From: Candidatus Coproplasma sp.
GTDB taxonomy: Bacteria; Bacillota; Clostridia; Christensenellales; Borkfalkiaceae
Length of the DNA: 64,000 nucleotides
Direction: 5' to 3'
Assembly: GCA_051884155.1 (NCBI GenBank)
Contig: JBJEVB010000008.1
Coordinates: forward strand, 5,745 to 69,744
Translations under genes and position numbers: made by a program
The notes under the pieces: generated by a model
The model's database searches: none
What the model saw: only the letters and a program-made list of their open reading frames with translations
Told to the model about the DNA's origin: nothing
Shown here: positions 15,572 to 55,926 of the stretch, piece after piece
How positions within the stretch are numbered: position 1 is the stretch's first letter
Layout: each line of letters starts with the position of its first letter

Positions 15572-15665
15572 TAAAAAGACAACTCAAATTTAAAAAACAA
15601 TCTTAACGCCCGCACGAATTTAGTGCGGGCGAGCTTATAAATTATAACGGCATATAAATAATAGT

Positions 15666-16694: not shown

Positions 16695-16721
16695 ATTTTT
16701 GTTATAACGACCCGTTTTTCA

Positions 16722-16750
16722 TTGTCAAAAGTTTTCGACCGTGTTATAAT
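16722..16750 (+). promoter_or_regulatory. Candidate promoter for secG
   Basis: TTGTCA-17 nt-TATAAT with a TGn extended -10. Confidence 0.6.
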
Positions 16751-16785
16751 ACCTTTCGTAATTGTACTTATATTGAGGTTTTAAA

Positions 16786-17085: not shown

Positions 17086-17100
17086 TCAAAAGAAAACTGT

Positions 17101-17128
17101 AGCGGAACCTATCGGTTCCGCTTTTTTT
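17101..17128 (+). terminator. Intrinsic terminator after secG
   Basis: AGCGGAACC-TATC-GGTTCCGCT followed by T7. Confidence 0.8.
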
Positions 17129-17138
17129 GTAAGAATTT

Positions 17139-42344: not shown

Positions 42345-42553
42345 AAATCCTCCAAAACGTTATAAAGAAATCTCGACTAATCCCTACAACGTAAGAAGAA
42401 TTCTTTTTAACTCAAAATGCGCCCTCGACGTCATTCGGGGCGTATCTAAAAAAAGTTTAAAGCGACATGCTCGTCGCTTAGATGGGTCGTCCATAATCTC
42501 CTCTTAAAAAATTACTGCGGAATTGTATATTATTTGTTTGACCGCTTTTTTAT

Positions 42554-42582
42554 ATTATAACACAACGTTTGCCGTTATGCAA
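42554..42582 (-). promoter_or_regulatory. Promoter for the CNNM/CorC gene
   Basis: TTGCAT-17 nt-TATAAT on the - strand, implying a ~200-nt leader. Confidence 0.6.
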
Positions 42583-42603
42583 TCATTTATAGCAATAATT
42601 TTG

Positions 42604-42619
42604 CGCCCTGCACTTACGC
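42604..42619 (+). repeat. Left copy of the 16-bp direct repeat CGCCCTGCACTTACGC
   Basis: Identical to 55911-55926. Confidence 0.8.
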
Positions 42620-42635
42620 TGTAAAGTTTTACAAT

Positions 42636-42676
42636 GGTATAGAACAGTAAAGGAACTGCTCTATACCGTTTTTTTA
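42636..42676 (+). terminator. Intrinsic-terminator-like hairpin just inside the left end
   Basis: GGTATAGAACAG-8 nt-CTGCTCTATACC (1 mismatch) followed by GT7. Confidence 0.55.
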
Positions 42677-42791
42677 TTGTTCTAATACGGGCGGCGGCAT
42701 TACGCAAAGGACAGAAACGGAGCTGTGCTATCGGCTTATCGGGCAAATACATTTATTTAACTAAGTATAAATAACAAAGGAATTTGAAAAT

Positions 42792-43415
42792 ATGAACGGA
42801 ACGGATATGTATATTGAAACGGTCAAATACCTTGCCAAACTTTACGACTATTGCAACGAGAAGTTTTTTAACGGTGAGTTGCAAAGACCTGTAATAACCA
42901 TACAGCGTGACGAGCGCAACAAAACTAACGGTTGGTTCTCACTCCAAAAGGTTTGGAAGTGCAAATCTTCGCAAGAAGAAGATTACGAGCTGAATATTAC
43001 AGCTCAACAGCTTAACCGCCCTATCAGTGCAATAGCGGCAACTATGATACACGAAATGGTACATCAGTTCGCTAAGGTCAACAATATGCAAGATACTTCC
43101 CGTTCGGGTTCGTATCACAACAAATTGTTTAAGCGTCTTGCCGAAAATCACGGGCTTAACGTTGAGTGTATGCCTACTATCGGTTGGTCACATACAACGC
43201 TTACCCCCTCTTCCGAAAAGCTTATCGCAGAGTTTGTTAAGGACAACCCCGATAACATAATTTATCGTTTACCCGTATTCAAGGGGCAAAGCGTTAAATC
43301 TACGAGTACACGCAAATATGAGTGTCCTTGCTGCGGTAACAGCGTGAGAGCTACAAAGCAACTCAATATTATTTGCGGTGACTGTAACGAGCCTATGCTC
43401 GAAGATAAAGATTAA
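42792..43415 (+). CDS. SprT-like zinc metalloprotease with C-terminal Zn ribbon
   Basis: HExxH motif in MIHEMVHQF, plus CPCCG...CGDC. Confidence 0.75.
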   Translation: MNGTDMYIETVKYLAKLYDYCNEKFFNGELQRPVITIQRDERNKTNGWFSLQKVWKCKSSQEEDYELNITAQQLNRPISAIAATMIHEMVHQFAKVNNMQDTSRSGSYHNKLFKRLAENHGLNVECMPTIGWSHTTLTPSSEKLIAEFVKDNPDNIIYRLPVFKGQSVKSTSTRKYECPCCGNSVRATKQLNIICGDCNEPMLEDKD

Positions 43416-43629
43416 AACAACTGACTTCAACGCCGCTTTATCCCTCCCTTGCGGCGAAAGTATAAAAGCGAGGTTCTGCCAAGCCTCGCCCATATCGGGA
43501 AATGGTGTAAAAGTAGCACACAGACGGCAAAGTTTGTAGAGGCGGTGCAATTCCGTGTTTTCCGACCAACGCCCTTAAGGGTGAATTAATTGACAGCACG
43601 GACAGACGGCAAAGTGAGGTATTTATCAA

Positions 43630-44076
43630 ATGGATAAGGAAACGAAAAAGACGGCAAACGTGGTAACGGAAACGCTTAACGGCAATCTTGTAATGGTTAG
43701 AGAGCCTATTGTTGGCAAGGACGGTAAACAGCTTATAACTAAAGACGGCAGACCGTTTTTTGCATACATAGTGCGTGGTAACGTGCGTGGTCAGGAAAAG
43801 AAGATTGACTTTATCCCTAAGGATAAGGGTGGTTATGAGCCTTTGGATATTATCTTCGATATATCCGATAAAGCAGAGCTTGTAATGACTGAAGAAGTTA
43901 TGACCAACGACGACGGAACTAAAACACCTTACACTTCATATAAGGCGCAGACGGTTGACGAGGACGGTGAAATTTGGGCTTGCGGTGTAAAGCCTCAACG
44001 TGACAGTGACAAGGCATTGCTTAATTTCTTGCTTATTTGTCTGCGTAAGTCGCAGAAGTCTAACACAGCGGCATAA
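43630..44076 (+). CDS. Hypothetical protein (island)
   Basis: 148-aa ORF with a GAGG RBS. No motif recognised. Confidence 0.6.
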   Translation: MDKETKKTANVVTETLNGNLVMVREPIVGKDGKQLITKDGRPFFAYIVRGNVRGQEKKIDFIPKDKGGYEPLDIIFDISDKAELVMTEEVMTNDDGTKTPYTSYKAQTVDEDGEIWACGVKPQRDSDKALLNFLLICLRKSQKSNTAA

Positions 44077-44091
44077 TTGAAATAAATATCA

Positions 44092-44133
44092 AGGGGGCGG
44101 CTGTAAATCAACTACCCCCTTTTTCTTCTTTTT
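44092..44133 (+). terminator. Intrinsic terminator
   Basis: AGGGGG-17 nt-CCCCCT followed by a T-rich run. Confidence 0.55.
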
Positions 44134-44142
44134 GTGAATATT

Positions 44143-44172
44143 CCCCGTACGGGGTGTTGTTCCCTGCAAGGG
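44143..44172 (+). promoter_or_regulatory. Double-hairpin motif, copy 1
   Basis: CCCCgtacGGGG-TGTTGTT-CCCTgcaAGGG. Near-identical copy at 53241-53270. Confidence 0.5.
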
Positions 44173-44195
44173 TGATTAAATACGAGGTGACGGAA

Positions 44196-44405
44196 TTGAA
44201 AGGCTTTATCGAAGTAACGGAACGTATGGAAAATTGTTCGGTGCTGTGTCCTATCGGGAAAATTACGGCGGTTATAGATACGGGTGACGGTGTATTTATC
44301 GAAACGGGTTTTGACGGTCGAGGCAAAAGCACGGGAATTTGCGTAACGGAAAGTTACGATATTATCAAACAAAAAATAAGCAAATGCGAGGTGAAATATG
44401 GCTAA
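44196..44405 (+). CDS. Hypothetical small protein (island)
   Basis: The ORF-track start at 44154 lies inside the hairpin motif. TTG 44196 follows a GAGGTG RBS. Confidence 0.45.
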   Translation: MKGFIEVTERMENCSVLCPIGKITAVIDTGDGVFIETGFDGRGKSTGICVTESYDIIKQKISKCEVKYG

Positions 44406-44763
44406 AAGAGTACCTTATTACAGTCCTGATAGGAAAATTTATCCTATGACTAAAACAGATTACGTTAAGCGTGGAAGTCGTTGGGTAGAAGTAAACAAAG
44501 AAACAGAGCTTATATCTCTTAATCAAACAAAAATGGTGCTGAATAAGCAGGGTTTGCCTTTTGAACGTTCTCACCGTTTGGAAAAGCGTGATAAATACGG
44601 ACATTTTAAGCCTTACGATACTTTTTCTTCCATTTCCCCTGACGGTCAGAATAAAAGTACGTGGTACGTAGATTGGGTTAAGGGTGACGATAATTATCGT
44701 AGGTTGCAATACCAAAGTGTTGGAGCTAAACAGGCTTGGCGAAAAAGAAAAGGTAATAAGTAG
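44398..44763 (+). CDS. Hypothetical basic protein (island)
   Basis: 121 aa, Lys/Arg-rich. Its start overlaps the stop of the upstream ORF. Confidence 0.55.
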   Translation: MAKRVPYYSPDRKIYPMTKTDYVKRGSRWVEVNKETELISLNQTKMVLNKQGLPFERSHRLEKRDKYGHFKPYDTFSSISPDGQNKSTWYVDWVKGDDNYRRLQYQSVGAKQAWRKRKGNK

Positions 44764-44773
44764 GTAAAAAGCT

Positions 44774-45454
44774 ATGTCAAATTACGATTTAAACAGACAT
44801 AAAAAGGGTGATAAGGTCAAATGGGTTTTGACCTTAATTGTAGGAATATTGCTCGCTGCTGCTTGTGCGGCGGCATTGACAATGGGCATTAAAAATAACG
44901 GTTGGTTTAAGCCTACCGAAAACACGCCCGTTGAAGATACGGGTGGAATTACAGACCCTGATGATAATACAGGTGAAGATAATGGCGGTGGAATTACTGA
45001 CCCTGACGACAATACGGGCGAGGATAACGGCGGTGAGACAACTGACCCTGACGATAACACGGGTGAGGATAACGGCGGTGAAACAATCGTTACTGTTCTT
45101 CAAAGTGCAACTTTTGACGGTGCAGACGGTATTTCAAGTAATAGCTTTTTTACCGTAACGGGTAATCAGTCCACGGGTACTTATACAACGCCCGTTGGTG
45201 AGCTGACTAAGGCATTAAAGGTTGAAAGTTCTACTTCCATTGCGTTTACTACGGAAGTCACCACCACCGTTACGATTTATACAACTGAAACATATGTTGG
45301 TAAAACTATTAAGGTGGACGGAACGGCTTATACATTTGCCGCAGACGAGGACGGCTATATTGTAGCTAAGGCAGAGCTTGCGGCAGGCGCACACACAATT
45401 ACTAAGGGCGATACGGCGGTGTTTACATACTTAACGTTGACTACGGTTAAATAA
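44774..45454 (+). CDS. N-terminally membrane-anchored protein with acidic 15-aa repeats
   Basis: MSNYDLNRHKKGDKVKW followed by a TM span, then three copies of G(G/E)(I/T)TDPDDNTGEDNG. Confidence 0.65.
   Translation: MSNYDLNRHKKGDKVKWVLTLIVGILLAAACAAALTMGIKNNGWFKPTENTPVEDTGGITDPDDNTGEDNGGGITDPDDNTGEDNGGETTDPDDNTGEDNGGETIVTVLQSATFDGADGISSNSFFTVTGNQSTGTYTTPVGELTKALKVESSTSIAFTTEVTTTVTIYTTETYVGKTIKVDGTAYTFAADEDGYIVAKAELAAGAHTITKGDTAVFTYLTLTTVK
44942..45076 (+). repeat. 3 x 45-bp in-frame tandem repeat
   Basis: The copies differ mainly at synonymous positions. Confidence 0.8.
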
Positions 45455-45482
45455 AAAATAATAAAAAGGCGGGTAAAATTTT

Positions 45483-46535
45483 ATGTCAAATTACTATTTA
45501 AACAGGCACAAAAAGAGCGACAAGGTTAAGTGGTTTTTCACAGGCTTAGCGTTTTTCCTTGTCATTATAACGATTGTGGGAATGTGTTTACAGCTTTGGG
45601 GCAAAGGTAAGGTTAAGCCTTCCGAGTGGTTTAAGCACGAAGAAACCGAGCAGACTACCCCTACTACGCCCGAAAACGAGAATAGCGCAGTAGTAAGCGA
45701 CGGTGATAGCAACGGTATGTTGTTAGTTGCAAGCGCAATTCCCCTTAATTCTTATGAAGAATACGGCGTATCTGCTTTAGCGGAAAACGCGCAGTTGATA
45801 ACTGCAACCTTTACCCCTGAAGCTACTACTAACAAAAACGTTACTTGGTCTTGTAGTGATACAAGCGGTAAAGTAACTGTTACACCCGTGAGTGGTAATC
45901 CTTTGCAAGCAACTGTTGCTGTATCGGGTGCTTTTGGTACTCAGGTAACTATAACCTGTACCTCTCAGGCGAATTCCGCAATTAAAGCAACCTGCACTGT
46001 TGATTATGTGAAACATTATGCTTGGAACAGTGTACTTCTTTCGGATAATACTTCAATAAAAGACGAGTGGTCTGGTTATTTATATCCTTCTTTTGGTACG
46101 GGTACTTTAAGTCCTACGTCCTGCGTTGGTGAAGTATGGTTGTATTTAGACGGGAATTTATACACCTATCTTAAGGCTAATCATAGTACTGTTCAATCTT
46201 CAAAATGCCTTAATTCAAGTGCTGACGAAATGAATAACGAAGGTTCTTACTACATTAAAGACCTTTTCGGTACGACTAATGAAAGCGAGATTAACAGCAT
46301 TTACGCCGATATTGCTAAGTACTATTACGGTCAAGAAGACGTTGAAGTAGGAACGTTAACTTATGAAAATGTTCACTTCTATTATAACGGCATTGAAACG
46401 AGTTACGCCGACGGGGATAGTGTTGTTGAGACCACTTTAATTATAAATTCCTTCTCGGATATAAACGTTGCCCCTACAAGCCTTTCGCTTAGCGACGGCG
46501 GTTTAATCTTTGGGGCAAACGGCGCAATAGCTTAA
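45483..46535 (+). CDS. N-terminally membrane-anchored protein with Ig-like (Big_2-like) segment
   Basis: The anchor MSNYYLNRHKKSDKVKW+TM is paralogous to that of the previous gene. VTWSCSD...VTITCTSQ... is Ig-like. Confidence 0.65.
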   Translation: MSNYYLNRHKKSDKVKWFFTGLAFFLVIITIVGMCLQLWGKGKVKPSEWFKHEETEQTTPTTPENENSAVVSDGDSNGMLLVASAIPLNSYEEYGVSALAENAQLITATFTPEATTNKNVTWSCSDTSGKVTVTPVSGNPLQATVAVSGAFGTQVTITCTSQANSAIKATCTVDYVKHYAWNSVLLSDNTSIKDEWSGYLYPSFGTGTLSPTSCVGEVWLYLDGNLYTYLKANHSTVQSSKCLNSSADEMNNEGSYYIKDLFGTTNESEINSIYADIAKYYYGQEDVEVGTLTYENVHFYYNGIETSYADGDSVVETTLIINSFSDINVAPTSLSLSDGGLIFGANGAIA

Positions 46536-46549
46536 TTTTGGGGTGAAGT

Positions 46550-47164
46550 ATGAGCAATAAAATGTCACGGGGCGGTGTTGGCTCTAAAATAGCATATGCA
46601 ATAATCGTCGTTTTCGTCGTGCTTTTATTGCTTGCTGTCGTCGGTTTCTTTGCTAAGTTCACTAACGGTTTTACTTCCGATTTTGCACCGTTTTACGTAG
46701 AGTACGACGGTAAGACGATAACTTCCGATAAAGACGGATACAGTTTTGTAGTTGGTAACAAATACGAATTTAAGGTTGGGTATTCTTTGGACTTTTTGAA
46801 TAAAGACAAGCTTACCTATAGCGTAAAAGTCGTACCAAACGTTACGGAAAATACGGACTTTAAATATGAAACAGCAGACGGACTTTACAAGTTTTCGGAT
46901 ATAGAAGATTTAACGCAGTTTTTCGAGATTGAAAAGGGCGAAAACGGGTTCACTCTGTCTACGAATTATACTTTGCAAAAAATGTTTACGCAGATTTACG
47001 GTGAAACGGTTTCGGGTGTTCCAACGGAATATGGTTCGGAAGATTATTTAAAGCTTGTTGTGTCGAGCGAGGACGGTTCTAAGATTATTAATTTGTCTTT
47101 CAATACTATCTTTGTTCTTCCTGAAAGTATTGTGCTGAATAAGACTTCTTTAGTCTTTTGGTGA
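46550..47164 (+). CDS. N-terminally membrane-anchored protein
   Basis: 204 aa with a single TM span near the N-terminus. Confidence 0.6.
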   Translation: MSNKMSRGGVGSKIAYAIIVVFVVLLLLAVVGFFAKFTNGFTSDFAPFYVEYDGKTITSDKDGYSFVVGNKYEFKVGYSLDFLNKDKLTYSVKVVPNVTENTDFKYETADGLYKFSDIEDLTQFFEIEKGENGFTLSTNYTLQKMFTQIYGETVSGVPTEYGSEDYLKLVVSSEDGSKIINLSFNTIFVLPESIVLNKTSLVFW

Positions 47165-47168
47165 GTTT

Positions 47169-48587
47169 ATGAAAAAGATTTTAACTAAAGTTACATATAC
47201 GATAGCGGCTTTGGTTGCTATGTTCATATTCATTATCTCCTCCATTGTGGGTGGCGGTGTGGGGTCAGCCTATGCCGCCACTTCCACTATTGAATATTCC
47301 AACGTTTTGGACGACTTGAAAAAGGACAGTAGTTTCAATGCTTCTTACTATCCGGAAAAGGCAGACGATTACAGCTTGCAGATAATTCAGCTTGCTGAAA
47401 GTTCGGACAAGGAATTGTTCGTGTATGTGTATCAACCGAGCGGACAGATTAAAAAGCTTACGGCGTGTTCAATCAATATTTCCACTACGATAAATGACGA
47501 TATAAGCTTCAACAACTATAAGCTCCAACTGCTTAATTCAAGCGGCGTATTTTTTAAATACAAGGTGAACGATTTTACAGTTAAGAGCGAGCCTACCCGT
47601 TATTATGCGATAAGTTCCATATACCGCCCTTTTGACGAAACGATAGACAGCGGTGCAGAATACGGCAATACCATTACGGAAGTAAATTACGACGTAAGTA
47701 AGCAATATTGCTTTTCTACGATTAACGGCAATCCTTTTGTGCAGGTTGTAGATATTGAAACGATAACAATAACGGATAAGTTCGTAGGTTTTGTTCGGTA
47801 TTCGGGCGGACACCATTTTTGGACTAATACGATGCCGTCGTGCGACGGTCATTTTATAGCGTTCAGTACGGACAAGCCTATTGAGAACCTTATTGAAGCG
47901 GACGTCTTTTTTACTAGTCAAAGCTATTACAGAGAGCGTGGCGTAGGCACTTCAAACAGTGAAAAATATGGCGATAAACTCGATAACACCGTCTGCGTTA
48001 CAGATAAAAAAGTCACCTATAACGGCGGCGGTTGGTGGGCTGGAACTTATAGTTGGGAACGTATCCAAACGGTTGACGAGTTCATTGCCGAAAACGACTT
48101 AACGCAGAACGTGTATTCGGGTGCAGTGTTTGACGTGAACGTGGCAAACAAAATTACCGACGAAGGCAAAGCAGCTTTACAAGATAAGCAATGGGTGTTG
48201 AATTTCTTTGAAACTGAATATAAATTCCAAATTACAGGCAGTGCCGCTTCTGGTACATATTCAGATAATACGTCGTTTACCATAGTTGGCGACGTAACAA
48301 TACTTCGCTTAAAGTTTGAAACGGACGGCGTTACTTACAATCTCGGCACGATAGATAACAAGGTTATAGGTAGCGATAAGCCGATAAACGAAGAAACGCA
48401 CGACGTTGTTGTAAACAATAGTGGTAATTTTATAGCCCTTATATTAGGCTTAATCGTTTTAATATTCTTGATAGTTCTTTTTGCGCCTCTTTTCGGTTCT
48501 ATAATAGGTCTTGTTGTAAAAGGCGTTGTGTGGGTGGTTTGCTTGCCGTTCAAGCTTATAGGTAAGCTGTTTAAGAAAAAGGAGTAA
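47169..48587 (+). CDS. Secreted protein with signal peptide and C-terminal membrane anchor (adsorption/spike-like architecture)
   Basis: Signal peptide ending AYA|AT. C-terminal hydrophobic spans followed by KLFKKKE. Confidence 0.65.
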   Translation: MKKILTKVTYTIAALVAMFIFIISSIVGGGVGSAYAATSTIEYSNVLDDLKKDSSFNASYYPEKADDYSLQIIQLAESSDKELFVYVYQPSGQIKKLTACSINISTTINDDISFNNYKLQLLNSSGVFFKYKVNDFTVKSEPTRYYAISSIYRPFDETIDSGAEYGNTITEVNYDVSKQYCFSTINGNPFVQVVDIETITITDKFVGFVRYSGGHHFWTNTMPSCDGHFIAFSTDKPIENLIEADVFFTSQSYYRERGVGTSNSEKYGDKLDNTVCVTDKKVTYNGGGWWAGTYSWERIQTVDEFIAENDLTQNVYSGAVFDVNVANKITDEGKAALQDKQWVLNFFETEYKFQITGSAASGTYSDNTSFTIVGDVTILRLKFETDGVTYNLGTIDNKVIGSDKPINEETHDVVVNNSGNFIALILGLIVLIFLIVLFAPLFGSIIGLVVKGVVWVVCLPFKLIGKLFKKKE

Positions 48588-48592
48588 TTATT

Positions 48593-49057
48593 ATGGCACA
48601 TAAGAAAAATAGTTTTCATTGTAAATCTGAAAAACAAAGAAAGGCAATAGCGGCAAGTTATGCGAGAAGAGCGACGGAAAGTAAATCAGTTTCTTCTCCT
48701 TTTGAAATGCATTTAGCTAAGATACAGAACGATTATATGTTTACTTCAAATGAACCACTTGGCGTGCATACTTACGCTGTATATACCGAGAATAACGAAG
48801 TTCGTGCAATTCCGACTACTCATTTATATGTTCCTGATAAAGAAAGAATGGATAAGCTTCATAAAGGTTTATTGTGTAAGGTTAAGTTTGCTGGATATGA
48901 AACGCCGAGTGGCGTAGAAAATCGTTATTACAACACTAATGCACAGGGTGGTAAAATTGATTTACAAGATAAACGTGTGCAAATTGATAAATCGCCACTT
49001 CCGCAAAAGCAAGCACTTACGATAAAAGAATTTGCAAAATTCTCTCGTAAACGGTGA
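48593..49057 (+). CDS. Hypothetical protein, distant paralogue of 52097-52555
   Basis: 154 aa. Shares a [YC]AV..E.N....P block and its position with the 152-aa ORF. Confidence 0.6.
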   Translation: MAHKKNSFHCKSEKQRKAIAASYARRATESKSVSSPFEMHLAKIQNDYMFTSNEPLGVHTYAVYTENNEVRAIPTTHLYVPDKERMDKLHKGLLCKVKFAGYETPSGVENRYYNTNAQGGKIDLQDKRVQIDKSPLPQKQALTIKEFAKFSRKR

Positions 49058-49059
49058 TA

Positions 49060-49200
49060 AAAAAAGAAAGGTCGCAGGCATGTTACTTTAAGCTCCTGCG
49101 ACTGAAAGAATTATAAAATTGCTTTTCCGGTAATATAACGGCGGACGTGTACGCCCCTATTCAAATAGGAAGTCCGACAAACGGAAATCGTCGTTACTGT
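49060..49200 (-). ncRNA. Candidate small RNA 1 (- strand, ~140 nt)
   Basis: Lies downstream of the TTGACT-17-TATAAT promoter. Ends at the GTCGCAGG/CCTGCGAC hairpin followed by CUUUCUUUUUUU. Confidence 0.55.
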
Positions 49201-49205
49201 TTGCA

Positions 49206-49234
49206 ATTATAAGGGATATTTAATAAAAAGTCAA
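49206..49234 (-). promoter_or_regulatory. Consensus sigma70 promoter for sRNA 1
   Basis: TTGACT-17 nt-TATAAT on the - strand. Confidence 0.7.
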
Positions 49235-49257
49235 ACGATTTTTGGCTTGTAAATAAA

Positions 49258-49278
49258 ATTGAAAATACACTTTCAAAA
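49258..49278 (+). promoter_or_regulatory. Palindromic motif ATTGAAAATACACTTTCAAAA, copy 1
   Basis: TTGAAA-6 nt-TTTCAA, 13 nt upstream of the ORF at 49291. Identical copies at 52943 and 55698. Confidence 0.5.
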
Positions 49279-49290
49279 AGGACGGTTATT

Positions 49291-49464
49291 ATGAAAGAAA
49301 ATCGCAGATTTAGAAAACGTACATATATTCAAGACTATTACGCAAAAAAGCGTAAGGCTGAACAAATTGACTGTTTATGCCCTTTATGTAAGCACTTTGA
49401 CGAAAAGTGTGGCGGTTGTACAAAAGGTCGTGAAAAGACCGAACGTGACGGGGTTTGGACATAA
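49291..49464 (+). CDS. 57-aa Cys-rich (Zn-ribbon-like) basic protein
   Basis: Too short for the ORF track. AAGGA RBS. CLCPLC...CGGC. Its stop overlaps the next start (TAATG). Confidence 0.5.
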   Translation: MKENRRFRKRTYIQDYYAKKRKAEQIDCLCPLCKHFDEKCGGCTKGREKTERDGVWT

Positions 49465-49688
49465 TGAATACAATGGATAGTCCTGTTCTGTCGGACAGGC
49501 AATATGAGAGATTTTTAAACTTGTGTGCTCGTGCAATCGGTACAATAAATAAGTTTATTAGTCTTAGGCAAATAACGGATATGGGTGACGGTAAATATAA
49601 GATTAACGTAGCGTATAAGGGTTATTACCCTTATCAAATGGTTTATGACGGAAAAAGAATTATTGAGTGTATGCGATTGTTGTGTTAA
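49464..49688 (+). CDS. Hypothetical small protein (island)
   Basis: ATG 49464 is translationally coupled to the upstream ORF. Confidence 0.5.
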   Translation: MNTMDSPVLSDRQYERFLNLCARAIGTINKFISLRQITDMGDGKYKINVAYKGYYPYQMVYDGKRIIECMRLLC

Positions 49689-49715
49689 ATAAAAGAATAT
49701 ATACGGGTTTATGAT

Positions 49716-49940
49716 ATGACTATTAATCAAATAATTATCTTAGTTGTTGCTGTCGTTATTATTGCTATTCTCGTGCCTGTTTTGATTGATATTATCAAGT
49801 CGGGCGTATTGCAAAGGTTTTTTGAACGAATTAGACGAATGCACGGTTTTAAAACGTTCAAGCGCATTATGTATGTACTTCTCGGTGTGTTGGTTGTGTT
49901 TGTTATAGGTTACTTTATTTATACGGCGGTGCAGTTGTGA
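49716..49940 (+). CDS. Small two-TM membrane protein
   Basis: 74 aa: two hydrophobic spans separated by a basic loop. Overlaps the next start. Confidence 0.6.
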   Translation: MTINQIIILVVAVVIIAILVPVLIDIIKSGVLQRFFERIRRMHGFKTFKRIMYVLLGVLVVFVIGYFIYTAVQL

Positions 49941-52093
49941 TGGAAAAGAAACGGTTTAATTATCGGTATATAATTTGCATACTTATCACTATAGGTTTTC
50001 TCGCCTGTGGCGTGTTTGTGTTTCCTAATGCTCTTGCCCGTTTGGTTGAGAGTGGTCGGGACTTTGGTTTATCCGTAGCATATTATTTTTGCGAGGTGTT
50101 CGGAATACCTCACGGTATTACGCCAACGGTCAACGATTTGCCGTCTATGCAAATAATACCGCCTATAGGTGGTAGTGCTACTACTACCTTGCCCGAAACG
50201 TGGGACGGTTTTAAATCTAATTGGGGTACATATTGGCAGTTGTGGGTGACAAAAGATAATTTTACGGGTTATTTGTCGTATGTTGGCAATTTACTCTTTA
50301 CACTTTGCAAGGTTATAATTATAGCCTTGCCGTTCGTACTTTTATTGTACATATGGTTAAGCCGTTACCTTAAAAATGAGAATAACGACTACGACAGGGA
50401 TAGCCGTCCGCTTTGTGCTTTTAAGTGGGTTACGGCGCATATATATACGCCTGTTAAAGCTTGGCTTATAGAGCTTTATTGCTTTATAAGAGAGCGTAAA
50501 GGCTATTGGGTAACGTGGCTCTGCTTGTGGCTTTTCTACTTCAATGTGTTCACTATAGTTATTGAGTTCTTTGCTTTCTATTTTTATTTCGTCGTTACGT
50601 TCGACGTGCTGAATATCTATCGGCAGGTGTACAAGCTTTTTTTAGACTTGTGGACGGTGTTAAACTTTGTGCCTATATGGCTGTGGGTGATTATCGGGCT
50701 AATAGTCTTTGACCATTGCCGTAAAAAGATTGCCTATTCACGGTTACACCATTTTGAAATGCGCAATCGTGGGTTTATCAATGCCCGACCTATCGTCTAT
50801 ATGGTGTGCGGTACAATGGGTAAGAAAAAGACAACCGCTATTACAGATATGGCGTTGTCGCAAGAGATAATGTTTAGGGATAAAGCTTTTGAAAAGCTGC
50901 TTGAGAACGATTTGAAGTTTCCCAACTTCCCTTGGATAAATCTTGAAAACGAGCTTAAACGGGCTATGGAATATCACGTTGTGTATAACCTTGCTACGGT
51001 TAAAATATGGGTGCATAAAAAGGCTTATCGTTGGAATAAGACACCAACCCGTAATAGGTTATTCAACTACGATTACGAGCGTTACGGGCTTACATATGAT
51101 GATAAATTAAAGGTCATAAACGTGTGGGAAGCGATAGAAACGTATGCACAACTTTACTTTATCTACGTTATTCAATCTTCCCTGTTAATTGCAAACTACT
51201 CTGTAAGAGTTGATAGTGTTCTTGCCGATTTAGGCAACTTCCCTATGTGGAATAGTGACTTTTTCAAAAGTGATAGCCGTCTTATAGACAGTTACAGTCG
51301 TCACGCCCATATTCTTGACTTTGACAGCCTACGCCTTGGGCGAAAGATTGTTGAGAATAACCGCAACGCAGACTGTTTTGAATTTGGCGTAATTGTGATT
51401 ACGGAAGTCGGCAAGGAACGTGGGAATAAGGTTGAGTTACAGGAAAAGAAAAAGCAAGATGATAGCACTAACCAAAAGAACGATTTATTTAACAGTTGGC
51501 TTAAAATGGTTCGTCACTCTGCAACGGTGGATAACTTCCCGTTTGTGCGTGTGATTACGGACGAGCAACGCCCTGCAAATTGGGGTGCAGACGCCCGTGA
51601 GCTGTGTGAGATTGTGCATATCCGTAACAGCGGTGAAATGTGTCTTGCTATGCCGTTTTTCTCGCTTGCGGAATTGCTGTACGGTTGGTTGTTCGGCAAG
51701 TTTGTTGGGTTGTATTACAAATACCGTTTTGTGCGTTCGGATAATACGTTGCCTATGTATCTGCTTAAAGCGTTTGCGGCAAAAGTACATCATTATTACA
51801 CGGGTATATATAATCGTTTTGGTTTTTGTACTCTCTCTGTGCAGATTGAAAGCGGAACGCAGGACGGACAGTTTGATGAAAATAAGTATTTCTTAATGTC
51901 GAAAAAGATTTACAGTAAACGTTTTTCAACGGACTGTTTTTCAGATTTCTTTATGGAAAAGGCGTTACGTTCATCTATCGGCATAGACGATTTACGGGAA
52001 TACGCAACTGAAAAAGCAACCTTTGATGAGTTGCAGTTGCAAAACAGTTACTTTATCAATGACCTGTTGAATGGTCTTTTAAATAATAATTAA
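49937..52093 (+). CDS. Polytopic membrane protein fused to a P-loop NTPase with Zot/pI-like motifs
   Basis: About 6 TM spans in the first 280 aa, then VCGTMGKKKTT, VIVITEVG and VRHS...VRVITDEQ. Confidence 0.7.
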   Translation: MMEKKRFNYRYIICILITIGFLACGVFVFPNALARLVESGRDFGLSVAYYFCEVFGIPHGITPTVNDLPSMQIIPPIGGSATTTLPETWDGFKSNWGTYWQLWVTKDNFTGYLSYVGNLLFTLCKVIIIALPFVLLLYIWLSRYLKNENNDYDRDSRPLCAFKWVTAHIYTPVKAWLIELYCFIRERKGYWVTWLCLWLFYFNVFTIVIEFFAFYFYFVVTFDVLNIYRQVYKLFLDLWTVLNFVPIWLWVIIGLIVFDHCRKKIAYSRLHHFEMRNRGFINARPIVYMVCGTMGKKKTTAITDMALSQEIMFRDKAFEKLLENDLKFPNFPWINLENELKRAMEYHVVYNLATVKIWVHKKAYRWNKTPTRNRLFNYDYERYGLTYDDKLKVINVWEAIETYAQLYFIYVIQSSLLIANYSVRVDSVLADLGNFPMWNSDFFKSDSRLIDSYSRHAHILDFDSLRLGRKIVENNRNADCFEFGVIVITEVGKERGNKVELQEKKKQDDSTNQKNDLFNSWLKMVRHSATVDNFPFVRVITDEQRPANWGADARELCEIVHIRNSGEMCLAMPFFSLAELLYGWLFGKFVGLYYKYRFVRSDNTLPMYLLKAFAAKVHHYYTGIYNRFGFCTLSVQIESGTQDGQFDENKYFLMSKKIYSKRFSTDCFSDFFMEKALRSSIGIDDLREYATEKATFDELQLQNSYFINDLLNGLLNNN

Positions 52094-52096
52094 GAG

Positions 52097-52555
52097 GTGA
52101 ATTTTATGTTTAAACACGGTAAGACGGGCGAAGTTTATTATTCCGTCCGTGAGAAGATTAATCACTATAAAAAGCGTATAGATGATAAGAGTTTAACTGT
52201 TGCACAGCGAGAATACGCAAAGCAACGTATTGGTGAGTTAACTTATTTAAATAATTTGTCTTATAAAGAGCCTGAACTCATTGTTACGGACGATAAGGTT
52301 TTTGGTAATGGAATAAGTAAACCACGTCTTTGTGCTGTTATTGATGAAGATAATTACGGTCGTTTATACGTTGCACCTATTATGGAACGTACTTCAAAGT
52401 CTATTATTCTTGATAATGACTATAGTCGTCAAATTGGTGATAAACGTAAATGGATAGACCGTAGTAATGTTTACGAAAACAAATATATTGACGGAGTTAA
52501 ACCTCTTACAACTAATGACAAATCAAAAATAAAAATAATTTTAAGAAAAAAATAA
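52097..52555 (+). CDS. Hypothetical protein, distant paralogue of 48593-49057
   Basis: 152 aa, the last ORF before the next sRNA-bearing spacer. Confidence 0.6.
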   Translation: MNFMFKHGKTGEVYYSVREKINHYKKRIDDKSLTVAQREYAKQRIGELTYLNNLSYKEPELIVTDDKVFGNGISKPRLCAVIDEDNYGRLYVAPIMERTSKSIILDNDYSRQIGDKRKWIDRSNVYENKYIDGVKPLTTNDKSKIKIILRKK

Positions 52556-52664
52556 CAACGACTTATTAGGTCGTTGTTTAATGGGATATTTCCCGTCCAC
52601 CGCTGAAGGAAGCGGTGCTTATTCGATAGACCACGCTATTTAATAGCGGAAAGTTACTATCACT
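52545..52664 (-). ncRNA. Candidate small RNA 2 (- strand, ~120 nt)
   Basis: Promoter TTGACT-17-TAAACT. Terminator AACAACGAC/GTCGTTGTT followed by AU7. Confidence 0.5.
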
Positions 52665-52670
52665 GTTATT

Positions 52671-52699
52671 AGTTTAAACAATTCTATGGTAAAAGTCAA
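52671..52699 (-). promoter_or_regulatory. Promoter for sRNA 2
   Basis: TTGACT-17 nt-TAAACT on the - strand. Confidence 0.6.
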
Positions 52700-52758
52700 A
52701 CATTTTTTTATTGCGTAAATAAAATTGATAAGTTTGATAATAAAATCGACTTTATAAG

Positions 52759-52885
52759 TAAAAAAATAACGACGGCTTATTAGGTCGTCGTTGTTGTGGT
52801 CACTATGCCACCCACCGCTTAGAGGAAGCGGTGCTTACTTTGCGGGGCAGAACGTAGTTACTAACCGTTTACCTTCCGCATTTCG
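52759..52885 (-). ncRNA. Candidate small RNA 3 (- strand, ~125 nt)
   Basis: Promoter TTGACT-17-TAAAAT. Terminator AACGACG/CGTCGTT followed by AU7. Shares the CACCGCUUCC..AGCGGUG hairpin with sRNA 2. Confidence 0.5.
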
Positions 52886-52891
52886 TTTATT

Positions 52892-52920
52892 ATTTTAAGG
52901 CATTGTTTTGCAAAAGTCAA
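52892..52920 (-). promoter_or_regulatory. Promoter for sRNA 3
   Basis: TTGACT-17 nt-TAAAAT on the - strand. Confidence 0.65.
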
Positions 52921-52942
52921 TTAAATTTTACTTACTAATAAA

Positions 52943-52963
52943 ATTGAAAATACACTTTCAAAA
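52943..52963 (+). promoter_or_regulatory. Palindromic motif, copy 2
   Basis: Identical 21-mer, 14 nt upstream of the ORF at 52977. Confidence 0.5.
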
Positions 52964-52976
52964 GGCAGGTTCATAA

Positions 52977-53219
52977 ATGAAATCTTTAGTCGAAAAATAC
53001 AATTATAATTCTAAGCTTGATACGGGCTTTTCTCACGGCTATTGTACGGGTGTAAGGTATTACCGTAATCATGGCAATTGTTCGACTGCGGAAAAGCAAA
53101 AGCGAAACGCATTTATAGACGATATGAAAGTAGCGGCGTTAAAAGGTCATTCTTATGCCAAGGGCTTTATGTGTGCCATTCGTGATTGCGCAAACGAGCG
53201 TAAAGGCAAAAAGCAATAA
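52977..53219 (+). CDS. Hypothetical 80-aa Cys/His-containing protein
   Basis: First ORF of the Rep transcription unit. Confidence 0.55.
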   Translation: MKSLVEKYNYNSKLDTGFSHGYCTGVRYYRNHGNCSTAEKQKRNAFIDDMKVAALKGHSYAKGFMCAIRDCANERKGKKQ

Positions 53220-53240
53220 ATTATCTTCTATTTGTTCTAT

Positions 53241-53270
53241 CCCCTTTAGGGGTGTTGCTCCCTGCAAGGG
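53241..53270 (+). promoter_or_regulatory. Double-hairpin motif, copy 2
   Basis: CCCCtttaGGGG-TGTTGCT-CCCTgcaAGGG, 24 nt upstream of the Rep start. Confidence 0.5.
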
Positions 53271-53293
53271 TGTTTAAAATGTGAGATATAAAG

Positions 53294-54280
53294 ATGAACG
53301 CAGTAGACTTACAACCTTTGGACGAATTAGGCTGTCCGTTTCCGTTCTTAGACGAACCGGCACAGCCAACCAAACAGTTTTATAAAATATATCACGACGG
53401 CGGCAGTTACGTTGCAACCCGTTGTTTTCGTAGTCAGTTAAAGCGTAAGGGTAATTCTCATAGTCGAGAGGCTATAGATATTCTCTTCGACAGCCTGTAT
53501 TATCAGGCAACGAAAGACGGGTTGAAAGATACTAAGCTTGAAACGCCGTTTACTGACTATATCAAAACGGGAATACTTAAGGTGTTCCCGTACTTTGCTA
53601 ACGTTGAGAATTATATTGAAGAAAAGGTTAAACGCAAGCGCCATAATTTACAGGTGCGAAAAAAGCGGTTCAGGCGTAAGGCAAACTTAAACTGTTGGAA
53701 CTACTTCGTAACGTTTACTTACGACGATAACAAGCAAACGCCCGACAGTTTTCGGAAGAAGTTACGCAGGTGTTTATCCAACCTGCATACAAGGCGTGGT
53801 TGGCGTTATATGGGCGTATTCGAGTGTGCGCCTGAAACAGGGCGTTTGCACTTCCACGGGCTTTTATACGTTCCTGATGGTGAAATGATAGGACGGTTAA
53901 CGGAAAAAGAAGATTATAGCACGGCACAGCAAAAAATGCAGACAAGAACCGAAAACAGCTTTTTTGAAAAGGCTTTCGGCAGAAACGATTTTACAGGGTT
54001 AAGCGAAATGCAATTAAGGTACGGTCATACATTAGATTACATAGTAAAGTACATAGGCAAGACTGACGAAAAGATAGTTTATTCACGGGGAATACCGACG
54101 GAAGTTTATAAGAAGTTGACGGAAGATAGTATTATTACTGAATTTACGGACTTTGTTGAAAAGTTTGTCCTCTTCGACAACGTTGTTGATTGGGAAGAGG
54201 ATATATTGTGCTATAAATATAAAAAGCAGATGTCAATAATTGATATACTCTGCAACCCACCGCAGTATAACATTGCGTAA
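53294..54280 (+). CDS. HUH-superfamily rolling-circle replication initiator (Rep)
   Basis: Motif 1 NYFVTFTYDD, motif 2 GRLHFHGLLYV, motif 3 LDYIVKYIGK (YxxxY). Confidence 0.85.
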   Translation: MNAVDLQPLDELGCPFPFLDEPAQPTKQFYKIYHDGGSYVATRCFRSQLKRKGNSHSREAIDILFDSLYYQATKDGLKDTKLETPFTDYIKTGILKVFPYFANVENYIEEKVKRKRHNLQVRKKRFRRKANLNCWNYFVTFTYDDNKQTPDSFRKKLRRCLSNLHTRRGWRYMGVFECAPETGRLHFHGLLYVPDGEMIGRLTEKEDYSTAQQKMQTRTENSFFEKAFGRNDFTGLSEMQLRYGHTLDYIVKYIGKTDEKIVYSRGIPTEVYKKLTEDSIITEFTDFVEKFVLFDNVVDWEEDILCYKYKKQMSIIDILCNPPQYNIA

Positions 54281-54491
54281 ATAGTACCCATAATTGAATA
54301 ATTTTCGGACTTGCGCCTATGGCTTTCATACGGCGTTTTTTGGCGTTGACCAAAGATTAACTTAAGACAGAAAACTACCCCCTTTGCTTATTTTGTACCC
54401 TGTAAAATAATAGACGGTGCGACTTTGCAAGCGGTTTAGCGCAAAACGCACCCTTTTTTACAGCGAAAATGCGGTCTATCTGTCTGTCAAA

Positions 54492-54551
54492 AGGCGACAC
54501 CTTGCACTGCCGAGCGCAGCTCGGCACTCGTTTTAGTGCAAGGTGTCGCCT
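54492..54551. other. Nested perfect hairpin (17-bp outer stem, 7-bp inner stem)
   Basis: AGGCGACACCTTGCACT...AGTGCAAGGTGTCGCCT encloses GCCGAGC-GCA-GCTCGGC. Confidence 0.7.
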
Positions 54552-54641
54552 AATACTCTCTCTATCTTTTTGAGAGCTAAAATAGCTTGAATTTTAACGG
54601 AAAATATAAGAAAATACTACGGAAAAGGACGGTTACGGAAA

Positions 54642-55691
54642 ATGAAACGGAAAGGAACGAAAGATTTAACGCTGACACAACGGCGTTCTTTGGAAGATTT
54701 ACTAAAGGCAGGGGTGCATAAAAAACAAATAGCCAAACAGTTGGGCGTGTGTCTTGCAACTGTGTATAACGAAATTAAACGTGGCAGGTGTGAACAGCGT
54801 AAAAAGGTTTACGACGTGTACGGTGATGTCATAGGCTATAAAACGTATATAGTTTATAGTGCGGATATAGCGGAATATAACTACCGCTTTAATCAATCTT
54901 CGCACGGTGCGCCTTTAAAAATCGGCAATGATTATGGGCTTATACGGGAAATTGAAAATCGTGTTATAAACGATAAAATTTCTGCGTGTGCCGCATTGGG
55001 GCGTATCAAGCGTGAAAATGCTTGTCGTACAATTATTAGCAAAACTACGCTTTATAGGTACATACGTTCGGGATATATATTTACCCGTCTGACAATGCAG
55101 GACGTGAAAATCAAGCCTAAACATTATCAAAAGACAACCATTAAACGTGCGCCAAAAGGTACAAGCATTGAAAAACGCCCTGCCGAGATTGCAGAGCGTA
55201 ATTCGTTCGGTCATTGGGAAATGGACTGTGTATTAGGCAGGCAGGGTACTAAACCAACCATTTTAGCCTTTACGGAACGACTAACACGTTATGAGATTGT
55301 TTATAAAATGCCCGACCATAAGACTGCGACCGTCGTTCACTTTGTCAATAAGCTTGAAAAGCGTTACGGAAAGTTGTTCCGCAAGCTGTTTAAAAGTATA
55401 ACCGTTGATAACGGTGTTGAGTTTAGCGACTTTAACGGGCTTGAAAAGTCTATCTATGGCGGTAAGCGGACTAACGTCTATTACTGTCACCCTTATACTT
55501 CGTGCGAACGTGGTTCTAACGAGCGTTTAAACCGTGAAATACGCCGATTGATACCGAAAGGCACTGACCTATCTAATTATAGCGATAAGGACATTAAGGC
55601 GGTTGAAACATGGGTAAACGCATACCCTCGTGAAATCCTCGGGTATGCAACGAGTGCCGAACTTTTTAACGAGCAATTATCCGCAATATAA
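54642..55691 (+). CDS. IS30-family DDE transposase
   Basis: N-terminal HTH (KQIAKQLGVCLATVYNEIKRG). Catalytic triad in GHWEMD, TVDNGVEF and GSNERLN. Confidence 0.9.
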   Translation: MKRKGTKDLTLTQRRSLEDLLKAGVHKKQIAKQLGVCLATVYNEIKRGRCEQRKKVYDVYGDVIGYKTYIVYSADIAEYNYRFNQSSHGAPLKIGNDYGLIREIENRVINDKISACAALGRIKRENACRTIISKTTLYRYIRSGYIFTRLTMQDVKIKPKHYQKTTIKRAPKGTSIEKRPAEIAERNSFGHWEMDCVLGRQGTKPTILAFTERLTRYEIVYKMPDHKTATVVHFVNKLEKRYGKLFRKLFKSITVDNGVEFSDFNGLEKSIYGGKRTNVYYCHPYTSCERGSNERLNREIRRLIPKGTDLSNYSDKDIKAVETWVNAYPREILGYATSAELFNEQLSAI

Positions 55692-55697
55692 TATAAT

Positions 55698-55717
55698 TTG
55701 AAAATACACTTTCAAAA
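55698..55717 (+). promoter_or_regulatory. Palindromic motif, copy 3
   Basis: TTGAAAATACACTTTCAAAA, 7 nt after the transposase stop. Confidence 0.5.
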
Positions 55718-55910
55718 ACAATGCAAGCCGCCGAAAGACGGCTATTTTGTCGTACAACGTTATTGAGCTTAAACCGCTGTTCCGTCTGTCTTTGGCTAAA
55801 GACAGATGATTAAAACCCGTTGAAGTAATCTCTCCAACGGGTATTTTACTATACTCTAAAAAAATTTTTTGAAATCGTAAAAAAATTCTAAAAAAATACT
55901 TGACTTTTCA

Positions 55911-55926
55911 CGCCCTGCACTTACGC
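55911..55926 (+). repeat. Right copy of the 16-bp direct repeat
   Basis: Identical to 42604-42619. Confidence 0.8.

Follow-up and report, generated by a model that had tools for sequence, protein, structure and literature searches.

A 13.3-kb island in a Candidatus Coproplasma genome as a Rep-encoding, most likely phage-like element inserted by IS30-family transposition

What is the block of some 17–20 open reading frames (ORFs), the sizeable ones all on the plus strand, that lies between two perfect copies of a 16-bp direct repeat at positions 42604 to 55926 of a 64,000-nt stretch of a Candidatus Coproplasma metagenome-assembled genome (MAG; class Clostridia; contig JBJEVB010000008.1 of assembly GCA_051884155.1; this whole stretch is referred to as the window), and by which route did it get there? 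The answer proposed here, with a probability of about 0.6, is that the island is a transposable, Rep-encoding, phage-like element, most likely a temperate and non-lytic phage that functions in a manner analogous to the transposing plectroviruses. An earlier sequence-only reading of the window had already singled the island out by its repeat, CGCCCTGCACTTACGC, and this repeat is indeed present at both edges of the island and nowhere else in the window, even with up to two mismatches allowed; its length is exactly 16 bp, as the preceding bases (g/a) and the following ones (t/a) differ between the copies. ORF and domain calls agree with the plus-strand gene block being enclosed by host genes of the minus strand (CNNM/CBS/CorC_HlyC, 41055-42344; LPG_synthase_TM, 56006-57346), and no gene is interrupted by the insertion, as had been claimed, the right repeat copy lying just past the terminator which the 56006 gene has on the minus strand (stem 55979-55948). 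The deviation in G + C content for which a check had been proposed is there as well (~0.40 in the island vs. ~0.46 in the rest of the window), and the GC skew is ~+0.13 in the island (G > C on the coding strand) vs. slightly negative values in the flanks.

That the repeat marks the limits of a real integrated mobile element, as had been supposed, is borne out by a multi-site comparison of relatives. One genome per GTDB species was scanned, 468 stretches were found to encode a relative of the island's P-loop nucleoside triphosphatase (NTPase), and 79 related loci were fetched (individual loci are given L numbers below). Other gut Clostridia have near-identical and related elements at more than 25 different sites of the chromosome, the element ends being constant across sites (YGTAAAGTTTTAYAAT... 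on the left, ...CTTGACTTTTCR on the right) and each copy having a private repeat of 14–17 bp, mostly 15 bp. An element of ~13.4 kb, whose NTPase is 84% identical to that of the window, is seen between unrelated host genes at no fewer than five loci with base-identical ends, and the alignment of these loci diverges exactly at TGTAAAGTTTTACAATGG... (left) and ...CTTGACTTTTCA (right), the very bases adjoining the 16-mer in the window; the private 15-bp repeats of these copies include TATAATACAAAGGAT, CACTGCGGCGGAAAA and CTTATTTTGAAAAAT. A relative with 77% identity is present at two further sites with a private 15-bp repeat at each, and about 20 more complete insertions with flanking repeats of 14–17 bp were found among the 79 loci. 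Several single MAGs contain two different members of the family (L023 and L029, L026 and L030, L033 and L037, L025 and L093), the NTPases of which are 54–77% identical to that of the window.

Could the 16-mer instead be an att core, acted upon by the host Xer system or by a recombinase that went unrecognised, or a repeat arisen by chance? The authors of a preprint discussed below read the 15-bp direct repeat of a relative as the outcome of site-specific recombination, and long terminal inverted repeats, which would be ~20–30 bp in an IS30-like element, are absent, the ends sharing only TGnAAAGT (7/8 nt), which also weighs against transposition. An att core and Xer integration are nevertheless rejected because each of the more than 25 sites has flanking repeats of a different sequence next to invariable element ends; moreover, no recombinase gene was found in the element with Pfam or PHROGs, and the length of the repeat shifts with the transposase family. 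As for chance, two or more copies of the 16-mer occurred in 0 of 100 dinucleotide-preserving shuffles of the window. The probability left for either of these explanations is negligible.

The insertions, furthermore, follow a common geometry. Three lengths were added up: that between the -35-like box of the right end and the repeat, that of the repeat itself, and that between the repeat and the -10-like box of the left end. This removes the 1–2-nt ambiguity of the repeat boundaries, and the total is 30 nt in 18 of 29 cases (5 + 15 + 10), 31 nt in the window and three others (16-bp duplication), and 29 nt in one case. The targets are AT-rich (74%) and intergenic, and in 10–14 of 18 cases a T-tract stands 2–7 nt left of the segment that is duplicated, a pattern which the AATAATTTTG of the window matches. 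The sequence-only reading had described AATTTTGC as abutting the repeat on both outer sides: it does occur near both copies, strict abutment being incorrect (the left one overlaps the first base of the repeat, and the right one begins 2 nt after it). As a part of the duplication AATTTTGC was considered and rejected; it reflects the general preference for a T-tract left of the targets.

What makes such duplications? The gene of an IS30-type DDE transposase is always the last one of the element and reads toward the right end; it is found downstream of the NTPase gene in 48 of the 79 loci, many of the others being incomplete. A sister clade (L058, L068, L079, L087) has an IS481-like DDE transposase as the last gene instead (best NCBIfam match 168–200 bits, which is below the curated cut-off), and it is precisely its elements that are flanked by unusually long repeats, of 26–28 bp vs. 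~15 bp in the IS30-type copies. Since the length of the duplication tracks the transposase family, the terminal transposase is taken to be responsible, the two clades amounting to a natural swap experiment. L010 is also listed with the IS481-like sister clade. The window transposase passes the IS30-family model, and duplications of 14–17 bp are not the 2–3 bp looked for in IS30 proper, which makes 2-bp duplications; they fit the behaviour of the IS30-type element IS1630, for which target duplications of 16, 23, 25 and 26 bp have been reported, so that both the ~20-bp duplications ascribed earlier to IS1630 and the suggested DDE-mediated insertion with a 16-bp duplication have held up.

It is therefore the IS30-family transposase encoded at the right end that would insert the whole element, via staggered cuts 15–16 bp apart, into AT-rich intergenic DNA adjoining a T-tract, repair of the stagger creating the flanking direct repeat, and the 16-bp repeat is, with little doubt, a target-site duplication of DDE transposition rather than an att site. 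Some results do weigh against this: the predicted empty site of the window element (…AATAATTTTG-CGCCCTGCACTTACGC-ACAATTTTGCC…) was not found, the exact CorC protein occurs on one other contig only, which is likewise occupied by the island, a protein look-up gave no other record of three other flanking proteins, and the reconstructed empty sites of 35 insertions had zero matches among the fetched loci. In the cycle proposed here, insertion is a step demonstrated by comparative sequence evidence, as is the intermediate that follows.

The active form of the element would be a circle or a head-to-tail dimer with its ends abutted via a 2-bp spacer, as expected from the copy-out-paste-in route of IS30, which itself forms minicircles and (IS30)2 dimers with its inverted repeats at left and right (IRL/IRR) "abutted via a 2-bp spacing" and a strong junction promoter, Pjunc. 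Abutted in this manner, the ends are predicted to place TTGACT (right) 17 nt from TACAAT (left), i.e., TTGACT-N17-TACAAT, the junction of the window element being …ATACTTGACTTTTCA-NN-TGTAAAGTTTTACAATGG…; the joined -35 and -10 hexamers would thus form a promoter existing only in the circular or tandem state. A metagenome scan for right end-N(0-25)-left end returned a single contig (L020) with a spacer of exactly 2 nt (TT), and its 62-nt stretch of right end, TT and left end can only derive from a template with abutted ends. In L064, the right end, AA and the left end stand at the contig start, and an exact 55-nt overlap (L064:1-55) indicates that an edge of the assembly graph connects the right end to the left one; the host flank adjoining the integrated right end of this copy begins with the same AA, and a copy-out attack by one end 2 nt outside the other predicts exactly such a spacer. 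In L066 (position 6565), TA joins the ends, well inside a MAG contig of 449 kb, with the gene order ...NTPase, Rep, transposase / p148, p83, p204, p472..., that is, as a head-to-tail tandem, an arrangement comparable to the arrays of CTXphi; in L064 as well as in L066, integrated and joined forms are thus present side by side in the sample. Finally, the ends in L099 are joined via GT, and the contig, 14.6 kb in length, may represent a circle in permuted form.

A 2-bp circle or dimer junction is, on these grounds, very likely, even if several points have to be set against it: L020 is an inverted chimera around the junction, L066 may be a chromosomal tandem and not a circle, the contig end of L099 is not readable, all four junctions come from relatives and none from the window's own copy, and IMG/VR yielded no circular junction with either exact or degenerate patterns, the left end of the element being likewise absent there. 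That the junction promoter is functional seems fairly probable; its -35/17/-10 geometry is conserved in both transposase clades despite their differing ends (tail plus head is 15 nt in each, 5 + 10 in the IS30 clade, where the -10-like hexamer lies 10 nt from the left tip, and 8 + 7 in the IS481-like one), and this is therefore taken as evidence of function. Less easily accommodated are the copies of the 9-mer AAAAGTCAA, of which there are four in the window, all within the island (49226, 52691 and 52912 on the plus strand, 55900 on the minus strand), the three internal inverted ones being the best sigma-70-like matches there while lying on the non-coding strand of an all-plus-strand element. 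One of these belongs to a 20-nt stretch inside the element (52691-52710) which repeats the right end in inverted orientation with 90% identity. This inverted copy could delimit a 3.2-kb sub-element of p80, Rep, origin and transposase.

Unlike that of IS30, the junction promoter would be directed away from the transposase gene and into the rest of the genome, firing into the one-strand gene array and starting within the left-end terminator hairpin, since a transcript beginning 6–8 nt past the -10 box would start within the 5' arm of this hairpin. The latter is terminator-like and probably shields the element from read-in transcription; it would presumably block read-in when integrated, with junction-started transcripts escaping it. 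In its mechanism, then, the element is comparable to an IS30/IS1630 element enlarged to the size of a genome: the transposase family, the 2-bp-spaced circle or dimer junction and junction promoter (IS30), the duplications of 16–26 bp (IS1630) and the TG...CA-type tips are alike, the differences being the tenfold greater length, ~20 other genes and the near absence of terminal inverted repeats.

How would a circle of this kind be maintained? The motifs FVTFTY (138), HFHGLL (186) and YIVKYIGK (249, with two tyrosines), together with the family model, identify the gene preceding the transposase as an HUH Rep of the phage ORF2/G2P type; a weak match to a microvirus Rep (25% identity) was obtained as well, and the arrangement of two tyrosines is presumably that of phiX174 gpA. 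The 360-nt spacer between rep and the transposase gene is more conserved than the surrounding genes, and its alignment across 23 loci reveals two hairpins with compensatory changes in 29 of 39 pairs. The two-tyrosine Rep would replicate the circle by the rolling-circle mechanism, these hairpins being the likely origin, single-strand origin or packaging signals, and rolling-circle replication is considered likely on the strength of domains and covariation, from which this step of the cycle is inferred. Most members of the family have such a PF23343 Rep adjoining the transposase, and the copy of Pumilibacter intestinalis CLA-AA-M10 (L042, element at about 1921-17360) has instead a CRESS-like Rep (Rep_OBD PF01719 and S3H helicase PF00910) at the left end (L042:2938-4104). 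The core thus stays constant with modules swapped around the NTPase, be it the type of Rep or an IS30- or IS481-like transposase, and exchange of replication and integration modules around a conserved core is the same pattern that has been described for inoviruses.

Does the element leave the cell? A preprint of July 2026 (bioRxiv 10.64898/2026.07.08.737213) reports a ~15-kb mobile genetic element (MGE) of Pumilibacteraceae MGBC157735, without an assigned identity, which is strongly enriched, as a sharp 15-kb block, in virus-like particles (VLPs) that were 0.2-µm-filtered, DNase-treated and CsCl-banded; a partial IS30 stands at its edge, one of its proteins is of the "inovirus gp2 family", and it is flanked by a 15-bp repeat, attributed by the authors to site-specific recombination, the mechanism of mobilisation being left undetermined by them. 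L075 contains the two inverted-repeat strings of this preprint without any mismatch and L039 contains them with one; both loci are family members (NTPase 64% identical to that of the window; SprT, p148, Rep and transposase present), and therefore a relative of the window element reaches nuclease-protected particles, although it is another member in another host. The claim that the island is of an undescribed type was hence nearly right, as this one preprint does report a relative, as an MGE of no known kind and without a mechanism.

The conserved core, made up of the NTPase, the 30-aa transmembrane (TM) peptide, the protein with a signal peptide and a C-terminal anchor, and the N-anchored surface proteins, would most likely assemble and export DNA-containing particles through the membrane, a step inferred from the gene content and the relative reported in VLPs. 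The phage-like nature put forward in the sequence-only reading has gained from the Rep of ssDNA-phage type, the structured intergenic region and the relative in particles, and is regarded as probable. Chances that the particle is self-encoded are about even, and a single-stranded DNA (ssDNA) rod or filament, of which the Rep type, the strand skew and the hairpins are indirect indications, is rather doubtful. The preprint employed a double-stranded DNA (dsDNA) ligation library, which does not indicate ssDNA packaging and leaves room for a helper, no capsid, coat or morphogenesis homology was detected for any of the element's proteins, the window clade is absent from IMG/VR, and the structural comparisons of the NTPase given below are not significant, all of which weighs against a phage. 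The density collected in the preprint was the 1.35/1.5 g/mL interface. We take this to be heavier than classical inoviruses or lipid-rich virions and near the plectroviruses.

The same data bring up a phage satellite, which would excise and replicate on its own and be packaged in the capsid of a helper phage. Capsid genes are indeed absent, VLP enrichment of the relative at CsCl densities of 1.35–1.5 along with its recovery in a dsDNA library would fit tailed-phage capsids, and a different MGE of the preprint, one with Zot, is put forward there as a satellite. However, terS-like, capsid-remodelling and helper-sensing genes were not seen with Pfam or PHROGs, the large conserved membrane machinery would have no role in known satellites, and no obvious common helper is apparent for the 468 stretches of species-representative genomes, which makes a satellite decidedly unlikely.

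The hallmark gene of the family encodes the orphan NTPase, with a Walker A of GTMGKKKTT (family consensus GxMGxGKTT) and with E490 and D542-Q544-R545 invariant or nearly so. It has thousands of homologues of a uniform 700–750 aa. At 50% identity these form 1070 clusters, for 540 of which the E value is below 1e-30, and the more distant members of the family lack an adjacent transposase. Searches of Pfam (E <= 10, including PF05707), NCBIfam and PHROGs gave zero matches, Pfam on 52 diverse family members found nothing specific and none Zot/pI, the PDB profiles of two alignments had a sole marginal match (ATPTB1, E 0.0031) outside the P-loop core, and the phage-database match was limited to one unclassified contig. 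Foldseek with the AF2 model (pLDDT 80) gave insignificant best matches (E 0.19 in PDB, 7.5e-3 in BFVD), and hhalign gave 26% vs. SpV1 ORF2 (TM and Walker A only) and 5% vs. M13 pI, with single-sequence templates limiting the sensitivity. The NTPase is thus not detectably Zot/pI-like by Pfam, PHROG, PDB profile, Foldseek or hhalign, and the kinship with filamentous-phage, plasmavirus or pleolipovirus morphogenesis suggested earlier is not supported by these searches; the "filamentous-phage logic" of the gene order remains an analogy.

TM helices followed by a P-loop also recall the layout of a type IV coupling protein (T4CP) or TraB, and so the island might be an integrative element with cell-to-cell transfer, with the NTPase in the role of a DNA translocase or a coupling protein, and with Rep in that of a relaxase. 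The annotation of the preprint's MGE includes a TraG/TraD-type domain match. Integrative and conjugative elements (ICEs) with DDE transposases do exist (TnGBS, the mycoplasma ICEs). Yet neither the window proteins (E <= 10) nor the 52 family members matched TraG, VirD4, FtsK or VirB4, Foldseek found no FtsK/HerA or T4CP fold, type IV secretion system genes are absent, and the VLP signal of the relative is DNase-protected; the combination that would define an ICE or an integrative and mobilisable element (a relaxase plus a T4CP/VirB4 or FtsK-like translocase) was not recovered with Pfam, NCBIfam, PHROGs or the fold search, and this explanation is very improbable.

What do the remaining genes tell? 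The gene calls made from sequence have been confirmed throughout (SprT-like protein, HUH Rep, IS30 transposase, polytopic P-loop NTPase, four membrane or secreted proteins and a 2-TM peptide), as has the list of what is missing, since no capsid, portal, terminase, tail, lysin, tyrosine/serine recombinase or conjugation domains were found in the island with Pfam or PHROGs. The membrane proteins had zero PHROG matches (one CBM77 match is from Pfam), and PDB sequence searches with p148, p472 and Rep produced nothing useful. The conserved topologies of the membrane genes are compatible with virion or surface proteins, that of the 472-aa protein resembling an adsorption or spike protein, and the L003 counterpart of the TM peptide is a 30-aa ORF (MKTFKRIMWVLLGVLVLAVIGYFIYTAVQL); that the 148-aa protein binds DNA is speculation.

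Such a gene set might equally be looked upon as cargo, i.e., the island might be a large IS30-family transposon with a rolling-circle plasmid-like module and membrane or surface proteins as cargo, forming no particle of its own and spreading through transposition, in the form of a circular episome and via any kind of transfer available in its host. The lack of a structural hallmark gene, the absence of the window clade from IMG/VR, a Rep type common to plasmids, and CBM77, Big_2 and Flg_new surface domains with the look of host-adaptive cargo would all suit this, as would the loop of hairpin A (TAGCG[C/T]), which presumably resembles the CS-6 element of plasmid ssoA origins, a lead only. On the other hand, it is the NTPase/membrane block, and not Rep or the transposase, that is conserved across the 1070 clusters, whereas cargo is normally variable, and the relative is enriched specifically in DNase-treated, CsCl-banded VLPs, so a plasmid-like transposon is regarded as unlikely and a temperate phage remains the preferred reading.

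Among phages, the closest described concept is that of the SpV1-type plectroviruses (genus Vespertiliovirus; SpV1-R8A2B, SpV1-C74), which share with the element a small one-strand genome, an IS30-family transposase and chromosomal insertion by transposition, a membrane-anchored P-loop protein with N-terminal TM helices (ORF2) and a large protein with a signal peptide and a C-terminal anchor (ORF1). According to ICTV, they carry the transposase in place of a p2-like Rep and package the circular transposition intermediate, and the genus is delimited by this replacement, a Mollicute host with UGA=Trp, and >50% similarity of CoaB and the maturation protein. The element, in contrast, has both a Rep and a transposase, measures 13.3–17 kb vs. 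4.5–8.3 kb, resides in Clostridia (Christensenellales-like) vs. Mollicutes with its ORFs open under the standard code, and shows blastp similarity for the transposase only (29% identity to SpV1-R8A2B ORF3, E 2e-15), a match that, along with ICTV, confirms the IS30-like transposase ascribed earlier to SpV1. An equal length of 715 aa for SpV1 ORF1 and the NTPase was dismissed as a coincidence, ORF1 being the signal-peptide/C-anchor protein and ORF2 the P-loop protein of SpV1.

With Inoviridae/Tubulavirales (Ff, CTXphi, cryptic inoviruses) the element has in common a compact one-strand genome with a structured intergenic region, an ORF2/G2P-type HUH Rep, a run of membrane proteins followed by a membrane NTPase, and modules exchangeable around a conserved core; it differs in that no homology to Zot/pI (the morphogenesis ATPase of Tubulavirales), coat or pIII was detected and in the topology of the NTPase, which is opposite to that of pI, the membrane domain coming first. 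There is no clear major-coat candidate either, the small hydrophobic protein at hand being the conserved 30-aa TM peptide with a basic N-terminus, coupled to the NTPase gene. Regarding Plasmaviridae and Pleolipoviridae, the BFVD Foldseek search of the NTPase, the one protein covered by structure search, was insignificant, and the membrane proteins have no PHROG match. Mu is similar conceptually, as a phage inserted at many sites by a DDE transposase with a target duplication, and differs in being tailed, with 37 kb of dsDNA, in making a 5-bp duplication and in having neither a Rep nor a circular junction, homology being limited to the DDE fold.

The family is very common but almost undescribed in gut Clostridia, and the findings explain how a widespread gut mobile element, a member of which a virome study had found packaged without a mechanism, moves. 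Exact ends, duplication rules and the junction sequence allow annotation, polymerase chain reaction assays and read-level detection of circles and empty sites, and Pumilibacter intestinalis CLA-AA-M10, a cultured carrier, makes the model testable. A Rep and an IS30/IS481-type transposase in one small genome extend the SpV1 idea, in which the phage genome is the transposition intermediate, from Mollicutes to Clostridia, linking insertion sequences, rolling-circle plasmids and small phages. As to the orphan NTPase, it is a candidate for a new type of motor in DNA export or assembly. Tentatively, and at somewhat less than even odds, one might go further and see here a new temperate-virus lineage of gut Clostridia, of family level or higher, combining rolling-circle replication and DDE transposition with an orphan membrane-NTPase morphogenesis module not related to Zot/pI; if so, the junction promoter would be the switch from a silent integrated to a productive state, and "transposable rolling-circle phages" would be present in hundreds of gut species, overlooked by current virus-calling tools.

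Table 1. Positions of the element, its ends, genes and structured sites within the window.
Feature	Position	Strand	Basis or remark
Left copy of 16-bp target-site duplication (very probable)	42604..42619	.	Relatives have other 14-17-bp repeats at the same place relative to the ends
Mobile element, 13,291 bp	42620..55910	+	Ends to the base: L003-L009 and L014-L019 diverge from each other there
Left end TGTAAAGTTTTACAATGG	42620..42637	+	Bases 11-16 (42630-42635), TACAAT, are the -10 half of the predicted junction promoter
Left-end hairpin GGTATAGAACAG/CTGCTCTATACC, 12 bp, then T7	42636..42675	+	Conserved in L003 and L014
SprT-like metalloprotease-fold protein with C-terminal Cys4 ribbon	42792..43415	+	PF10263 3.9e-7; phrog_6361 2e-30; 15/79 loci
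148-aa soluble conserved protein (p148)	43630..44076	+	24/79 loci; no Pfam, PHROG or PDB match
Twin GC hairpins TCCCCGTACGGGG...CCCTGCAAGGG	44142..44180 and 53240..53278	+	87% identity over 39 nt
N-terminal-TM membrane protein, 3 x 15-aa acidic repeats and CBM77 carbohydrate-binding module	44774..45454	+	PF18283 2e-19; TM prediction
N-terminal-TM membrane protein, Ig-like (Big_2-like) region	45483..46535	+	N-terminal motif common to the preceding gene
204-aa N-terminal-TM protein	46550..47164	+	TM prediction; 20/79 loci
472-aa protein, signal peptide and C-terminal TM anchor	47169..48587	+	29/79 loci; no family match
74-aa 2-TM peptide	49716..49940	+	C-terminal 30 aa are the conserved basic-N-terminus single-TM peptide overlapping the NTPase start codon
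718-aa orphan NTPase, hallmark gene of the family	49937..52093	+	~270-aa N-terminal helical membrane domain, then P-loop domain
Non-coding region with repeated hairpins	52556..52976	.	Two AAAAGTCAA motifs (52691, 52912) and palindrome at 52944
HUH rolling-circle Rep	53294..54280	+	PF23343 (REP_ORF2-G2P) 3e-11, 43.9 bits vs. cut-off 27.8; PHROG rolling-circle initiators
Hairpin A, invariant loop CAAGCGGTTTAGCGC, then T-run	54414..54456	+	Covariation, 23 loci; candidate double-strand-origin nick site or ssoA-like single-strand origin
Long hairpin B (GGCGACACCTTGCAC...GTGCAAGGTGTCGCC) enclosing inner GC hairpin	54493..54550	+	Covariation; candidate single-strand origin or packaging signal
IS30-family DDE transposase, last gene	54642..55691	+	NF033563 2e-64, 217.9 bits vs. 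cut-off 80; phrog_4646 3e-108
Right end CTTGACTTTTCA	55899..55910	+	Outward-facing TTGACT (55900-55905) would supply the predicted junction promoter's -35 half
Right copy of 16-bp target-site duplication (very probable)	55911..55926	.	Sequence match to left copy

A few minor features of the island and its surroundings are worth recording. The first two of the membrane-protein genes (44774-44835 and 45483-45545) have a common N-terminus, MSNY[D/Y]LNRHKK[G/S]DKVKW, followed by a TM helix (89 nt, 75% DNA identity); the homologues in L003 and L014 begin with MNELKRHKKSDKIKW, and this N-terminus may be a cytoplasmic sorting or assembly tag. Three tandem 45-nt repeats at 44942-45076 encode GGITDPDDNTGEDNG-like acidic linkers before CBM77, a module that is unusual for a mobile element to carry. 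The CorC-type gene has a 260-nt leader (42345-42603), for which an Rfam scan of the whole window (zero matches) gave no known riboswitch; this leader has a minus-strand hairpin and T-run at 42479-42460 and may be an uncharacterised attenuator. At 42598-42625 on the minus strand, the left-end tip TGTAAA reads outward as a -35-like TTTACA, which a promoter scan pairs with CAAAAT in the host flank, so the insertion may have made a hybrid promoter (TTTACA/CAAAAT) directed at the CorC-type gene. The twin GC hairpins each stand immediately before a gene start (p83 and Rep) and may be a shared translational or regulatory site. Lastly, the palindrome TTGAAAATACACTTTCAA is identical at 49259-49276, 52944-52961 and 55698-55715, two of the copies immediately preceding the ribosome-binding sites of p57 and p80, both small genes, and the third lying just past the transposase stop codon, and it may be an operator or an RNA hairpin.

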